This document shows positions 9,498-18,229 of a stretch of 38,821 nt of DNA, piece after piece. The translations under genes and the position numbers were made by a program. Source of the DNA: an uncultured archaeon (GTDB taxonomy: Archaea > Halobacteriota > Archaeoglobi > Archaeoglobales > Archaeoglobaceae). Location: assembly GCA_964592825.1 (NCBI GenBank), contig CAZQJR010000016.1, positions 1 through 38,821 on the forward strand, in the 5' to 3' direction. Every line of letters starts with the position of its first letter. The first letter of the stretch is position 1. Below the pieces are notes generated by a model that was given only the letters and a program-made list of their open reading frames with translations, was not told where the DNA came from and did no database searches.

Positions 9498-9504
9498 CCC
9501 TGAG

Positions 9505-9578
9505 TGGGGCCGCCGAGATTTGAACTCGGGTCACCGGCTCCCGAAGCCGGGAGGATAACCAGGCTACCCTACGGCCCC
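9505..9578 (-). tRNA. tRNA-Pro (anticodon CGG)
   Basis: The reverse complement reads GGGGCCGTAGGGTAGCCTGGTTATCCTCCCGGCTTCGGGAGCCGGTGACCCGAGTTCAAATCTCGGCGGCCCCA. Acceptor GGGGCCG/CGGCCCC, anticodon stem CCGGC/GCCGG, loop TTCGGGA. Confidence 0.85.
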
Positions 9579-13132: not shown

Positions 13133-14626
13133 TTACACGGCCATCGATAGACATCTGGCTTCGTTTGCATATGCCTTGCTCAGTATGAGACAGACATCGT
13201 TATAGTCGATTATACCATTGCCATCCATGTCGATGTTCTTGTATGCCCCACTGACATTTCCCACATGCATTAGAGCAATGTACGCGTCTTCTTCGTTTAC
13301 GATACCGTCTCCGTTTGCATCTCCTTTAATTTTTGATCGTGCAAGCTTCGCCACCTTGAAATCTCTGTCGAATAGCATCAGCTTTGCGATAATCTTAGAA
13401 GTGGCCACGTGGTGTAGGAAGCCGCCTTTGAATTCGTCGGATCCGTAAACCATCAGCGGAACTGGAGAGCCCGTGTGCTTATGAGTCGCAAACTTAACAC
13501 CCATCTTTTCCGATATGATTTCGCCCAGTGTATCTTCAAGTCCGTATTTTTCCTTTTCAGCTTCTTTTATCCTCTTAACTTCTTCAGGACTTAACTCGAT
13601 TCCAGCGTATTTCTTTACGACGTATTCAATGCTTTTACCACTTCTTATCTCTTTAGCCATATATTCTACGCTCTTTTTCACCTTTAGTATGTCCTTCACT
13701 TTTACCGATTTTCCGTACGTTATTCCCACCGCTAAGCCACCGGTTTCGTGATCTGCTGTAACTATAACGACTGTATCACCTCTATGTTTAGCGTAATTCA
13801 GTACATACTTAACGACGTCGTCAAACTCCTTTGTTTCTGCAACGACGGAGGCTATGTCGTTTATGTGACATGCGTGGTCTATTCTTCCGCCCTCGACCAT
13901 TAAGAAGAAGCCGTTTGGATTTTTCTCGAGAACTTCGATAGCCTTCTTTGTCATATCGAGCAAACTGGGTATGTTTTTACTTCTATCAAGAACGAATGGT
14001 ATGTTGGATTTTGCAAATAAACCCAGAATATATTTGCCTTTCGCCCTTTCAAGCGATTTCTTATCGTGAACGATGACATACCCGTACTTCTTTGCCAGTT
14101 TGAGCGTCTTTTCATCAAAGTATTTTGCACCCCCTCCAAGCAAAACGTTGACTCTGTGCTCTATCAGCTGCCTTGCAATCACATTTTCCATATGTCTGTT
14201 TTTAACGTGAGACGCAAAGACCGCCGGTGTTGCGTCGGTTATTCTTGCAGTCGTGACCAGTCCGGTCGACTTGTTGATCCTTTCAGCAACCTCCAAAATC
14301 GTCGTTAGATTTACTGTTTTGTTGTTGAGCTTTAAAGTCGAAATCATTCCATTGTACGTTTTGAATCCTGTTGCTATGGCGGTTCCGGCTGCAGCAGAGT
14401 CGGTAACCTCTCCACTTAGGGAATCTGTGAGTTCAAAGCCTACGCATGTCCAGTTAAAATGTTCCATAGTTAGGTTTCCATAAACGAGCTCTGTTATATG
14501 TAGCTGTGGAAAACCCATTCCGTCGCCTATTAGGAGTATCACGTTTTTCACTTCGCCAGCGCTGGTGATACCTATCTGGGCGAAGATCAACAAAATTCCA
14601 ACTGCCAACGCAATTTTTGGCTTCAT
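13133..14626 (-). CDS. Secreted alkaline phosphatase (PhoA family) with a C-terminal dockerin-like module
   Basis: Signal peptide MKPKIALAVGILLIFAQIGITSA; LLIGDGMG; active-site TDSAAAGTA; GGRIDHACH; ADHETGG; THKHTG. The C-terminus carries duplicated Ca-binding segments, DANGDGIVNEEDAYIAL and DMDGNGIIDYNDVCLIL (nt 13169..13330). Confidence 0.85.
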   Translation of the reverse strand: MKPKIALAVGILLIFAQIGITSAGEVKNVILLIGDGMGFPQLHITELVYGNLTMEHFNWTCVGFELTDSLSGEVTDSAAAGTAIATGFKTYNGMISTLKLNNKTVNLTTILEVAERINKSTGLVTTARITDATPAVFASHVKNRHMENVIARQLIEHRVNVLLGGGAKYFDEKTLKLAKKYGYVIVHDKKSLERAKGKYILGLFAKSNIPFVLDRSKNIPSLLDMTKKAIEVLEKNPNGFFLMVEGGRIDHACHINDIASVVAETKEFDDVVKYVLNYAKHRGDTVVIVTADHETGGLAVGITYGKSVKVKDILKVKKSVEYMAKEIRSGKSIEYVVKKYAGIELSPEEVKRIKEAEKEKYGLEDTLGEIISEKMGVKFATHKHTGSPVPLMVYGSDEFKGGFLHHVATSKIIAKLMLFDRDFKVAKLARSKIKGDANGDGIVNEEDAYIALMHVGNVSGAYKNIDMDGNGIIDYNDVCLILSKAYANEARCLSMAV

Positions 14627-15740: not shown

Positions 15741-15812
15741 ACTTAATAATTAAATATTTAAATTAACTCAAAATTTATTTAAATAGAAAATCCATAAGAA
15801 TACGCTCTTAGC

Positions 15813-17063
15813 CTAATATCTCCAAATTATTATGGATTCAGAGCTAATAGTTTCGGACTTCATGCCAGAAATATTTTCAGGAGCGTTCTCCCAAGGAATT
15901 CTTTTTGTTGGAATCCTCCTGTAAATCGTTTTCTCGTGTACTAATTCGTATTTTTCCGCTAATTCAACGAGAATTTTATCGGTCGGAACCCTTACCCTTC
16001 TCATGGTTCTATTACCAATTACAAAAACCATACGACTTCTACCTTTTTTCAAAGCCTTTGTTAATTTTAACAACGCTCTATCCATATCAAAGAAAAAACT
16101 ATATAAATCCCATGCTCTACGTTCATCTTTTTCATATATTTTGTTAAAAGTCTCTTCTAACGTTTTTGATTCCAATTTCGAAACGTCTCCTCTAATTCTC
16201 TTTCCACCTAACGATTTTTTATCCACATCTAGTACCTCTCTCAGTCCCAACCACAGCGCAGAATATTTTGAGAATTGCCCATAAGCCACTGTGGTTTTAC
16301 TATCTCCATACGGCGGAGATGTCAAAATTAAAGTAACTTCCTCTTCCAAATCGCATTCTCTTACATCTTTGAGATAAATTTCAGCTTTTGCATTTTTATT
16401 CTTCATAATGCTATAAAATTCCTCCATGGCTCTTAGATTGTCATAAAGGATTCTGCCAAAAACCGATATGACATCTGGATTCCACCTTTCCAATTCTTTT
16501 TTTGGCATTCTGTAAAGCTTGTATTCACCTTTTCTAATATTGCTAACCTTCCAAACACAATATGAAAATGCAACGGCGAAGAAGTTGTAGATTTTTTCAT
16601 CTTCTATACTTTTAATGTTGTGGAGAATTCTCGACAATTCCTTAATTACCTTGGGCTTAAACCAATAGTGTAAATTAGGGATTTTTGGCTCGGGATATTC
16701 TGTTTTATCGGTTAAGATTTGATCGAGAACGTCATTTATTTTACTTCTAAGAATTCTAGGATCGATAGGTGTTGTTTTGGCTTTACCGATCAAAATGGCA
16801 AGGGGATTGATATCAAATCCTATAGCATTTCTGTTATGAACTATGGATTCCACTAAAACGGTACAACTCCCACAAAATGGGTCTAGAACGATATCATCCT
16901 CTCTTGTGGCATACCTCTCTATAATTCTCTTTGCTATAAGTGGCATCATTCTTGCCGGGTACGGATGTAAACCATGAGTCAAGTATTTAGTGTCTTTACC
17001 CGCAAACGTCCAATCTTCACATTCATCCTGTACAACCGCAAATTCTGTTAGCCTTCTTATCAT
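15813..17063 (-). CDS. DNA methyltransferase, amino-MTase type (SPPY motif IV, so probably N4-cytosine; N6-adenine not excluded)
   Basis: HPYPARMMPLIAKRII, AdoMet motif I VLDPFCGSCTVLVES, and about 170 aa later motif IV LILTSPPYGD. Very low G+C. The start overlaps the stop of the AbrB-like ORF (ATGA). Confidence 0.75.
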   Translation of the reverse strand: MIRRLTEFAVVQDECEDWTFAGKDTKYLTHGLHPYPARMMPLIAKRIIERYATREDDIVLDPFCGSCTVLVESIVHNRNAIGFDINPLAILIGKAKTTPIDPRILRSKINDVLDQILTDKTEYPEPKIPNLHYWFKPKVIKELSRILHNIKSIEDEKIYNFFAVAFSYCVWKVSNIRKGEYKLYRMPKKELERWNPDVISVFGRILYDNLRAMEEFYSIMKNKNAKAEIYLKDVRECDLEEEVTLILTSPPYGDSKTTVAYGQFSKYSALWLGLREVLDVDKKSLGGKRIRGDVSKLESKTLEETFNKIYEKDERRAWDLYSFFFDMDRALLKLTKALKKGRSRMVFVIGNRTMRRVRVPTDKILVELAEKYELVHEKTIYRRIPTKRIPWENAPENISGMKSETISSESIIIWRY

Positions 17064-17218
17064 TCCTTCTCACTCCTTCTTTTCACGACTACTATTTTAT
17101 CGTTTTCAATATACCAGTCTATATACTCGCCTGGTTTAACATCTAACGCTTCTCTTACCGCCTTTGGTAAGCTAATTAAGAACTTACGCATAACCTTGCT
17201 TGTGGCAACTCTTCTCAT
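17060..17218 (-). CDS. AbrB/SpoVT (MazE-like) swapped-hairpin DNA-binding protein, 52 aa, not in the supplied ORF track
   Basis: My translation is MRRVATSKVMRKFLISLPKAVREALDVKPGEYIDWYIENDKIVVVKRRSEKE*. The core xxxLxIPKxxRExLxxKxGDxxxxxxxxxxIVL pattern is typical of SpoVT_AbrB domains. ATG is at 17216..17218 and TGA at 17060..17062. Confidence 0.65.
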   Translation of the reverse strand: MRRVATSKVMRKFLISLPKAVREALDVKPGEYIDWYIENDKIVVVKRRSEKE

Positions 17219-17220
17219 AA

Positions 17221-17241
17221 TTTTACCAGGTTTTTACCAGG
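17221..17241 (-). promoter_or_regulatory. Tandem direct repeat TTTTACCAGG x2 (offset 11 nt) immediately upstream of the AbrB-like ORF; candidate operator
   Basis: Copies at 17221..17230 and 17232..17241 are identical. On the coding strand they read CCTGGTAAAA-A-CCTGGTAAAA-TT-ATG. Each copy contains CCAGG/CCTGG. Confidence 0.45.
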
Positions 17242-17281
17242 TTAATAAATTTTTTGAAAATAAAAAACATTAAAAATATAA

Positions 17282-18037
17282 TTATTTAAGTTTTGTTTTA
17301 TTTAAAAATTTAGAAAGATCATTTGGTAAATCTGAAAGTTTTCTAAAAATACCTTTAAATTTTTCTTCTAATTCGTTTTTATACTTTTCATAAAGCACAT
17401 CTGGTATGTATACTCTTTTCATACCTCTTTCTACCATGTCTTTTGCCTTATTCGGCGTAAAATCTTTATCTGGTTTAATTAACACGAAAGCTGCGTTTGG
17501 AAACTTCTTGAAGATATCTATATCCTCAGACCACCTTTCTCTCAAAGTTCTCTTAACTGCTATAGCTACACATCTGCTGGCATCATATGTGATCGCTCTG
17601 TCACTAGGTACAGTTATGTCTGGACGGTAGCCTTCCACTTTAATATTTGAAATCTCACACTCAACTCCAGCGTCACTTAGAGCCTTCTGTAGTATTAATT
17701 CAACCGTTCTTCCTGCCCTACTTCTTCGAGTATTGGCTATACTCGTTACAAGACTATTATCAATAATTTGTTCTATAACATCAATAACATTTTTATTTAT
17801 TAAATTTCTTTCTTCTAAATATTTCCTTATCGCTTTACGCTCATATTCTCTGTATAATTCATCAGCCACCTCTTCTATCTCGTTTACGACTTCTGAAAAT
17901 GATTTTATTTCGAGTAACTCCTTAATGCTACTCTTTTTGTGACGCTTCAATACAATTGTAATGGCTTCATTCACGATTTTCTTTATTTCTGGGATATCAA
18001 GTTTACCCATGCTGATTACTTCAAAATTTAAAGTCAC
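17282..18037 (-). CDS. Putative type II restriction endonuclease (PD-(D/E)XK-like core)
   Basis: TRRSRAGRTVELIL, then GYRPDITVP (PD) and, about 21 residues on, VAIAVKRTLRERWSED (xVK followed by acidic residues). It has a helical acidic N-terminal domain and very low G+C, and sits in an operon with a DNA MTase. Assigned by motif and context only. Confidence 0.5.
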   Translation of the reverse strand: MTLNFEVISMGKLDIPEIKKIVNEAITIVLKRHKKSSIKELLEIKSFSEVVNEIEEVADELYREYERKAIRKYLEERNLINKNVIDVIEQIIDNSLVTSIANTRRSRAGRTVELILQKALSDAGVECEISNIKVEGYRPDITVPSDRAITYDASRCVAIAVKRTLRERWSEDIDIFKKFPNAAFVLIKPDKDFTPNKAKDMVERGMKRVYIPDVLYEKYKNELEEKFKGIFRKLSDLPNDLSKFLNKTKLK

Positions 18038-18084
18038 TTATGTGTTTTTCGTTTACGAAAGTTATTTAATTTAGTTTAGATATT

Positions 18085-18102
18085 TTTAAATATTTTAAAT
18101 AT
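18085..18102. promoter_or_regulatory. Tandem duplicated TATA-like element TTTAAATAT x2 upstream of the putative nuclease gene
   Basis: 18085..18093 and 18094..18102 are identical, lying about 48-65 nt upstream of ATG 18037 (minus strand). The spacer is AT-rich. Confidence 0.35.
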
Positions 18103-18229
18103 AAATTGTAATACGAATGAAGATTTAAATGATTTTAGACTTGCTTAAGTATTTCGAATTTACCATGGGAATTAATGCATGGATCGGCTTATCGTTAACG
18201 CTTAATAGCTTGCAATGAAATCATAGGCC

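Follow-up and report, generated by a model that had tools for sequence, protein, structure and literature searches.

The stretch of DNA analysed here, referred to as the window, comprises positions 1 to 38,821 of a contig of an uncultured member of the Archaeoglobaceae (GenBank accession number CAZQJR010000016.1). On its minus strand, at 15813-18037, it carries three genes encoding a restriction endonuclease (R), a small protein of the AbrB/MazE/SpoVT fold and a DNA methyltransferase (M). An earlier note, made from the sequence alone, had listed three open reading frames (ORFs) in this region and all were present at the coordinates it gave. We consider it probable that the three genes form a type IIP restriction-modification (R-M) system, some 2.3 kb long, which is mobile and was acquired horizontally by its Archaeoglobales host, and that the AbrB-fold protein is a controller which autorepresses a leaderless AbrB-M operon via an operator that can be methylated by the system's own enzyme. 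The starting points for this explanation were observed directly, namely the identities of the genes, the linkage of AbrB to M, purifying selection on the AbrB gene, a conserved operator, and the confinement of that operator to a single AbrB clade.

The AbrB-fold gene, its linkage to M and the operator

The small gene (17060..17218, minus strand) encodes a protein of 52 amino acids (aa) that scored above the curated cut-offs of both PF04014 (41.2 bits, cut-off 24.7) and TIGR01439 (37.7 bits, cut-off 28.3), in agreement with its earlier classification as an AbrB/SpoVT-type protein. Scans with hidden Markov models (HMMs) found no match to any helix-turn-helix (HTH) family. The domain fills residues 6-51 and there is no C-terminal toxin-binding extension. 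An AlphaFold2 (AF2) model of the monomer had a predicted local distance difference test score (pLDDT) of 83 and the order strand-helix-helix-strand-strand. The AbrB swapped-hairpin fold forms only as a dimer.

Related loci were found by scanning GTDB genomes with an M profile and metagenome contigs with M and then running phmmer on all ORFs; a search with an AbrB profile and context look-ups contributed four further lineages, for a total of 12 distinct lineages. In all 12, a small AbrB ORF was found immediately upstream of M, usually overlapping it by 4-30 nt, and the M proteins of these loci ranged from 91% down to 50% identity to the window M. The dN/dS of the small ORF was approximately 0.06-0.24 and it is under purifying selection. 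The position of R varied. It was upstream and co-directional in the window and in L001, L082, L085, L157 and L158, downstream and convergent in L083, L084/L122, L146 and L148, and downstream and co-directional in L086/87. The R proteins also belonged to two subclades, with that of L086/87 in the more PspGI-like one (106 bits to PspGI). Because R takes three positions and comes from two subclades, the conserved module as judged by gene order is AbrB-M, not R-AbrB. The coupling of the small gene to M rather than to R, and its conservation beside homologous methyltransferases, had both been raised in the earlier note and both held across the 12 lineages.

The AbrB profile search recovered about 24 clusters of proteins of 48-64 aa scoring 59-110 bits, all from archaea of thermal environments, and gave no match to viral contigs. 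Scores inside the clade were 84-110 bits, against 41 bits or less for generic PrlF/MazE antitoxins. The R-M-linked clade is rare, with only two clusters above 95 bits in an exhaustive library clustered at 50% identity.

The 63-nt spacer between R and AbrB, read on the coding strand, consists of oligo-T tracts, TTTATTAA, CCTGGTAAAAA-CCTGGTAAAAT and T-ATG. A repeat search identified within it an element missed by the earlier note, the putative operator (17221..17242, minus strand), which is made up of two perfect tandem 11-nt units (ACCTGGTAAAA twice). It contains a pair of CCWGG sequences, at 17237-17241 and 17226-17230, that ends 7 nt before the AbrB ATG. The operator is abutted by a TATA-like box, TTTATTAA (17242..17249, minus strand), which is preceded by a purine-rich stretch resembling a transcription factor B recognition element (BRE). 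The centre of the TATA-like box is about 28 nt from the AbrB ATG, so the AbrB-M mRNA is probably leaderless. The oligo-T tracts (T5, T6 and T4; 17257..17276, minus strand) lie just past the R stop codon. Oligo-T signals are used in archaeal termination, and these tracts may be a terminator that separates the R transcript from the AbrB-M unit. At the other end of the AbrB gene, its stop codon and the M start codon overlap in ATGA (ggaATGAtaag), an overlap already seen in the earlier reading of the sequence. GGAG/GAGG precedes the M start while no Shine-Dalgarno sequence precedes the AbrB ATG. These start signals appear to match what is usual in archaea, where the first cistron is leaderless and the second is led by a Shine-Dalgarno sequence.

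The arrangement CCWGG-N6-CCWGG was retained in 12/12 lineages, ending 2-10 nt before the AbrB ATG, and the other upstream DNA could not be aligned. A TTTATnTA-like box was found 5' of the operator in 12/12 lineages, abutting it in most. Among the 24 operator sites, the four C/G positions of CCWGG were invariant, the central base was T in 23 (p ~3e-6), giving CCTGG on the coding strand, and the next base was T in 20; the spacer between the sites was A-rich across lineages. Since the central T was conserved in 23 of 24 sites, the operator appears to be read directionally, by something besides the symmetric enzymes. When up to 300 nt upstream of M were scored for paired CCWGG, the pair was present at every locus with an intact AbrB. 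It was absent from all of about 105 M loci without this AbrB, some of which have close PspGI-family R genes. At no locus did the intergenic DNA upstream of R contain CCWGG, and the single CCWGG in a 150-nt stretch upstream of R (in L086) was inside the M coding sequence. A third CCWGG in the cassette (17130-17134) is within the AbrB gene, in Lys-Pro-Gly codons.

Between a TATA box and an ATG is the classic position for an archaeal repressor. If CCWGG is the target, a cognate site is located inside the M promoter in all 12 lineages, as two CCWGG between the TATA-like box and the ATG. The AbrB protein of Bacillus subtilis recognises TGGNA motifs in pairs, which may be in tandem or inverted and have short A/T-rich linkers (PMC3025583), and the operator, which reads TGGTA-AAAACC-TGGTA, fits this grammar.

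In two of the loci (L146:4001-4195 and L147:4001-4195), the public gene calls place the start codon of the AbrB protein, an ATG, upstream of the operator, which makes the protein 64 aa long. The start that is conserved is an internal ATG 8 nt past the second CCTGG, and the operator has been mis-annotated as coding sequence.

The two enzymes and their likely target

R (17282..18010, minus strand) was identified from HMM matches and an alignment with PspGI as a type IIP restriction endonuclease of the PspGI/EcoRII-C family with 242 aa. The earlier note had described a 251-aa protein at 17282..18037, and an ORF of this extent, called mechanically from a GTG at 18037, is present. In an alignment of 13 R proteins, that of the window and 12 homologues, the family N-terminus was M-(G/T/A)-K-L-x-(I/L)-P. 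Because this aligns with the ATG at 18010 (MGKLDIP...), that ATG is most likely the start, and the protein was shortened to 242 aa. R matched Pfam EcoRII-C (PF09019) at 2.8e-11 (44.2 bits, cut-off 25), the PADLOC type II endonuclease model (REase_II) at 1.9e-19, and the PspGI structure 3bm3 at E=2.7e-15 over residues 12-247, which is nearly the full length. Matches to EcoRII (6.7e-08) and Ecl18kI (1.1e-03) were weaker. The nuclease identity of the 251-aa protein had been set beforehand as a point on which the proposal could be refuted, and the EcoRII-C, PADLOC and PspGI matches all uphold it.

The active site of PspGI consists of E105, D138, K160 and E173, and its recognition residues are Q94, R164, E165 and R166 (PMC2577326). 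The R motifs TVELIL, RPD, AVK and WSE align with the four catalytic residues, with a D-to-K spacing of 22 in both proteins, and KRTLRERW, invariant in the 13 homologues, aligns with R164-E165-R166, the R-(D/E)-R motif that reads CC:GG. The only difference at these positions was at Q94, which is Asn in R, as in EcoRII. The motifs quoted previously (RRSRAGR, RPD, a K 22 residues past the D, and RERWSED) were verified, and conservation of the four PspGI catalytic residues agrees with the earlier description of a PD-(D/E)XK variant of the Cfr10I/NgoMIV type in which the Glu is relocated past the Lys. The most likely target of R, judged by this alignment, is CCWGG.

R therefore shares with the PspGI system, whose host (Pyrococcus sp. 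GI-H) is likewise a hyperthermophilic archaeon, a fold family, the catalytic E/D/K/E and the R-E-R recognition triad. It differs in belonging to a separate subclade, with a score of only 60 bits to PspGI, and in having Asp in place of the PspGI pocket residue F64.

M (15813..17063, minus strand) is an SPPY-type DNA amino-methyltransferase of 416 aa of the M.PspGI/M.MvaI kind, according to its PADLOC, Pfam and Protein Data Bank (PDB) matches. It matched the PADLOC model MTase_II PDLC03322 at 1.8e-129 and Pfam N6_N4_Mtase, and its best PDB matches were N4-cytosine methyltransferases. Motif I, DPFCGSCT, is at residues 61-68 and motif IV, TSPPY, at 248-252, and both were invariant in 24 homologues. 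Both motifs had been noted earlier, but they are about 180 aa apart and not about 170 aa. In the M.PspGI paper, SPPY is treated as diagnostic of N4-cytosine methyltransferases (PMC2532716). M.PspGI shares with M not only SPPY but also a spacing, with D197...K256 of M separated by 59 as are PD212...DSK271 of M.PspGI (PMC2532716), a comparison made by published spacing only. The predicted product of M is N4-methylcytosine (m4C) at the inner C of CCWGG. M clusters with methyltransferases of R-M systems that have PspGI-family nuclease partners, and not with the orphan or RNA methyltransferases that would have spoken against the R-M assignment of the earlier note. Judged by sequence, neither R nor M is out of the ordinary, and both are new members of families already known.

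The window contained six CCWGG sites where shuffled sequences gave an expectation of 71.7 +/- 7.9. The observed/expected ratios were 0.15 for CCWGG and 0.76 for CCSGG under a Markov model, and 0.08 and 0.33, respectively, using shuffles, and CCWGG was 4-5 times more depleted than CCSGG on both baselines. Of the six sites, the cassette accounts for three and tRNA genes for two (tRNA-Gly(CCC), 97-169, and tRNA-Pro(CGG), 9504-9578), and the remaining one (708-712) falls within an ORF of low G+C (185-718). No CCWGG was present in those parts of the window that are host coding DNA of normal G+C. The relatives L004, L010 and L066 also had no CCWGG but 5-11 CCSGG. Two other sequences were scarce in the window: GGWCC was found at 6 sites (1252, 3993, 21060, 23685, 27618 and 28900) compared with 94 expected from shuffles or 54 from the Markov model, and CTAG was found 6 times compared with 69. 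No gene for a GGWCC-type R-M system was visible in the window.

The cassette and its surroundings

The G+C content of 15813-18037 is 34.4%, compared with 52.7-52.9% in the backbone on both sides, and the earlier observation that the three genes are compositional outliers is borne out. By part, G+C was 36.0% in M, 38.4% in AbrB, 32.5% in R and 15.9% in the R-AbrB spacer. The low-G+C patch extends into two AT-rich flanking spacers, 15741-15812 and 18038-18229 (18-26% G+C). The first of these (15741..15812, minus strand), downstream of M, has 18% G+C and the low-G+C insert ends here, before TatD. The AT-rich region upstream of R (18011..18229, minus strand) is common to R and a divergent Nop5 gene and contains no CCWGG in the site list; the R promoter is placed within it on this layout.

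The host is an Archaeoglobales archaeon as judged by its fibrillarin, which matched that of A. fulgidus (1NT2) at 311 bits and that of Pyrococcus at about 173 bits. The closest genome-resolved relative of the cassette was found in L001, an Archaeoglobaceae metagenome-assembled genome (MAG). The window and L001 have only 15813-18022 in common, the 2.3-kb cassette, and no flanks. This sharing of the cassette without its flanks, together with the 19-point G+C deficit, indicates that R-AbrB-M moved as a unit by recent transfer. A repeat search around the cassette for flanking direct repeats, attachment sites and integration scars found none beyond low-complexity AT-rich matches.

Two decayed cassettes were also found. 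In L011 (507-2667), M carries a frame shift, R has been truncated and all that survives of AbrB is a 43-aa remnant. In L002 (4321-6667), from Methanodesulfokora washburnensis, AbrB has become a fused, degenerate ORF of 98 aa and the paired CCWGG is gone.

The window includes two other regions of lower G+C. A second patch (34-42% G+C) at 1-1400 contains tRNA-Gly, a 177-aa ORF (185-718), a small signal-peptide-like ORF (733-933) and tRNA-Leu(TAG) (1211-1295), and may be another insertion beside tRNA genes. An alkaline phosphatase gene (13133-14626), two genes from the cassette, has a G+C content of 43%, between those of the host and the cassette, and possibly belongs to a more extensive foreign region. 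The C-terminal tail of the phosphatase bears a weak likeness to dockerin and EF-hand domains. The only Rfam matches in the window were three tRNAs.

Proposed control of the AbrB-M operon

In the mechanism that we propose, R would be transcribed alone, and M would be the second cistron of a two-gene operon with AbrB first. An AbrB dimer, or a pair of dimers, would bind the two CCTGG(T) half-sites, which are one helical turn apart, and binding between the TATA box and the transcript start would block recruitment of RNA polymerase, thereby repressing both AbrB and M. Translational coupling through ATGA would fix the ratio of regulator to M. M would in turn methylate the operator, placing four N4-methyl groups per operator in the major groove, where AbrB would read the bases. 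The core of the operator is most likely the target sequence of the system itself. Because the half-sites would then be the system's own substrate, methylation-dependent binding is expected. If m4C changes repressor binding, the output of M would track the methylation state of the cell; in a homeostatic version, repression would occur only on methylated DNA. Binding of AbrB to the operator, repression, the CCWGG target and an effect of methylation on binding are the parts of this scheme that we infer. As a speculation, in loci where M and R are convergent, R could also be freed from transcriptional interference when the AbrB-M promoter is shut off.

Several results weigh against this interpretation. 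In a Foldseek search, the AF2 monomer of the 52-aa protein had as its top matches AbrB-N (1yfb/1z0r) and MazE (1mvf), but at E ~1 and TM 0.44-0.48; as these are not significant, the fold call rests on the HMMs. The sequence of R is also compatible with CCNGG specificity. In the window, GGWCC and CTAG are as depleted as CCWGG, so avoidance of the supposed target is not unique. In the flanks of the other lineages, CCWGG depletion (0.58) could not be distinguished from that at control loci (0.67), and it was dropped as evidence. AbrB-fold proteins have an intrinsic preference for TGG, so the match of operator to target may be coincidental in part. Finally, the ribbon-helix-helix (RHH), winged-helix, Xre and MazE-type AbrB regulators found in the same position upstream of M, described below, have operators without CCWGG.

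An AbrB protein that activates the AbrB-M operon, or both activates and represses it as classical controller (C) proteins do, was considered unlikely. C proteins of the classical kind switch from activation to repression as their concentration rises (PMC12707154), and the two sites of the operator could be filled sequentially. Yet the TATA box and the start codon enclose both sites, and protein bound there would obstruct RNA polymerase. Archaeal activators usually bind upstream of the BRE/TATA, and no conserved upstream site was found in the lineages.

Slightly less probable again is that the paired CCWGG is purely a promoter-methylation switch of the CfrBI/AhdI/LlaDII type, or a binding site for M, and that AbrB has some other role. 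Promoter-methylation control of M genes is documented (PMC12707154) and the invariant core of the operator equals the R-M target. The confinement of paired sites to loci with this AbrB clade (0/~105 other M loci) argues against it, and a symmetric enzyme target explains neither the orientation bias (23/24 CCTGG) nor the conserved T. The element also fits the TGGNA-pair grammar of AbrB.

The earlier note had suggested a non-canonical, AbrB-fold controller coupled to M, which the comparison of loci supports, and also a possible hybrid of R-M and antitoxin logic, which it does not. A hybrid in which AbrB neutralises R or another toxin by protein contact is suggested by the naming of PF04014 for the MazE antitoxin and by weak PrlF matches, but we regard it as very improbable: the domain takes up residues 6-51 of 52, leaving no toxin-binding tail, the gene downstream of AbrB is always M and never a MazF, PIN or YhaV toxin, the position of AbrB tracks M while R moves, and PrlF/MazE antitoxins score far below the members of the clade. 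A reading of the small ORF as a neighbouring regulator with no tie to the system, or as a chance ORF that hitch-hikes with it, is just as improbable. Small AbrB-family genes are common in archaea (1983 matches at E<=0.001 in a representative library), but this one overlaps the M start, has kept its linkage to M in 12 lineages despite rearrangement of R, has a dN/dS well below 1 and decays along with the system in L011 and L002.

A further proposal is that the AbrB-fold protein is a methylation-reading controller, in which m4C deposited by M gates repressor binding and the output of M follows genome methylation. We put this forward tentatively, as somewhat more doubtful than probable, jointly with the proposal that the slot upstream of M in this methyltransferase family is swappable, having been occupied by two AbrB subfamilies, RHH, winged-helix and Xre-HTH proteins. 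RHH ORFs were found in the slot at L010:4792-4983 (RHH_1) and L103:1949-2092 (RHH_3), with several more recognised by eye only. A winged helix (HTH_20) was found at L017:1378-1647 and in eight similar loci, and an Xre protein of the classical type (HTH_3) at L066:570-842, in Parageobacillus. In a Nitrososphaerales MAG (L004:4612-4878), the slot contained a MazE-type AbrB of another subfamily, with a palindromic operator, GGATAGCC-TTT-GGCTATCC, between the TATA box and the ATG. No CCWGG pair was found at the loci with these other regulators (RHH, winged helix, Xre and L004 AbrB), and since their operators lack CCWGG, methylation sensing is not needed for control of this methyltransferase family.

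Two groups of loci with similar small proteins were observed outside the AbrB-M set. A sister AbrB clade (P0140, P0142 and P0143, 59-72 bits) consists of 48-52-aa ORFs in the loci L150:3153-3299, L154:1570-2717 and L156:1354-2504. Each overlaps by about 49 nt a 345-378-aa PF27229 SSO2105_N protein with TnpB/IS605-OrfB-like motifs (FDINPDR, NPAYTS), and no CCWGG pair was found upstream of the AbrB ORF in L150, L154 or L156. These may be regulators coupled to a TnpB-like gene. In a Thermoplasmata MAG (L152:2758-5033, also L153), a distantly AbrB-like 50-aa ORF (P0145, 49 bits) is directly before a different, 292-aa N6_N4 methyltransferase, divergent to a 388-aa methyltransferase and beside two unknown ORFs (379 and 367 aa). 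ATAGAA repeats with an 11-bp period are present upstream of the 50-aa ORF, and the locus may encode a further R-M system under a controller of the AbrB type.

Nearly all that is known of R-M regulation comes from work on bacteria. Four modes of control for type II systems are set out in a 2025 review, namely promoter methylation, HTH-methyltransferase fusions, antisense RNA and HTH-type C proteins, and the only controllers the review includes are of the HTH type (PMC12707154). Full-text literature searches found no R-M controller with an AbrB or other non-HTH fold. Classical C proteins (C.PvuII, C.AhdI, C.Esp1396I, C.Csp231I and C.Kpn2I) are, like AbrB, small dedicated DNA-binding proteins encoded inside the cassette, with a bipartite operator in their own promoter, overlap and co-transcription with an enzyme gene, and autoregulation, which for AbrB is conjectural. 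They are Xre-type HTH proteins tied to R, whereas AbrB is a swapped-hairpin protein that always precedes M. Unlike theirs, its operator is located between an archaeal TATA box and a leaderless start and has half-sites that would be the system's own target. The AbrB protein would hence be C-protein-like in role but outside the C-protein family, as neither the HTH fold nor the linkage to R was found.

In the systems reviewed, the need for autoregulation of M is met by HTH fusions (M.EcoRII, M.SsoII) or by promoter methylation (CfrBI, AhdI, LlaDII) (PMC12707154). M.EcoRII, M.SsoII, M.Ecl18kI and M.MspI likewise use a DNA-binding module that acts on the M promoter, in association with the same family of CCWGG/CCNGG endonucleases, and repression by M.EcoRII depends on the methylation state of substrate sites (PMC12707154). 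In the M.EcoRII type, the module is an N-terminal HTH within the methyltransferase, while AbrB is a separate, translationally coupled polypeptide of another fold and its operator holds the putative substrate sites. In CfrBI, AhdI and LlaDII, as is probable in the window, a cognate site is located inside the M promoter and M can feed back on its own transcription; there, the sensitivity of RNA polymerase to methylation suffices with no reader protein, whereas the sites in the window are tied to an AbrB-fold protein. The AbrB and Abh proteins of B. subtilis share the N-terminal swapped-hairpin family and TGGNA pairs, but they are global regulators of about 94 aa with a C-terminal multimerisation domain and loose specificity. 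The 52-aa protein is domain-only and appears to serve one operon through a sharply defined operator.

What appears to be new here, with strong comparative evidence, is an AbrB-fold controller acting on M through a target-containing operator in an archaeal TATA/leaderless promoter. If the controller does read methylation, it would add a fifth mode of R-M control, in which a dedicated transcription factor and promoter methylation act together, and this mode would be the first to be described in archaea. Methylation-sensitive binding would make a compact epigenetic feedback circuit of one 52-aa protein and a 22-bp operator, with possible use as a thermostable methylation sensor. A further implication would be that R-M regulators have been drawn repeatedly from different small DNA-binding folds, which matters for the annotation of controllers overlooked by current searches based on the HTH.

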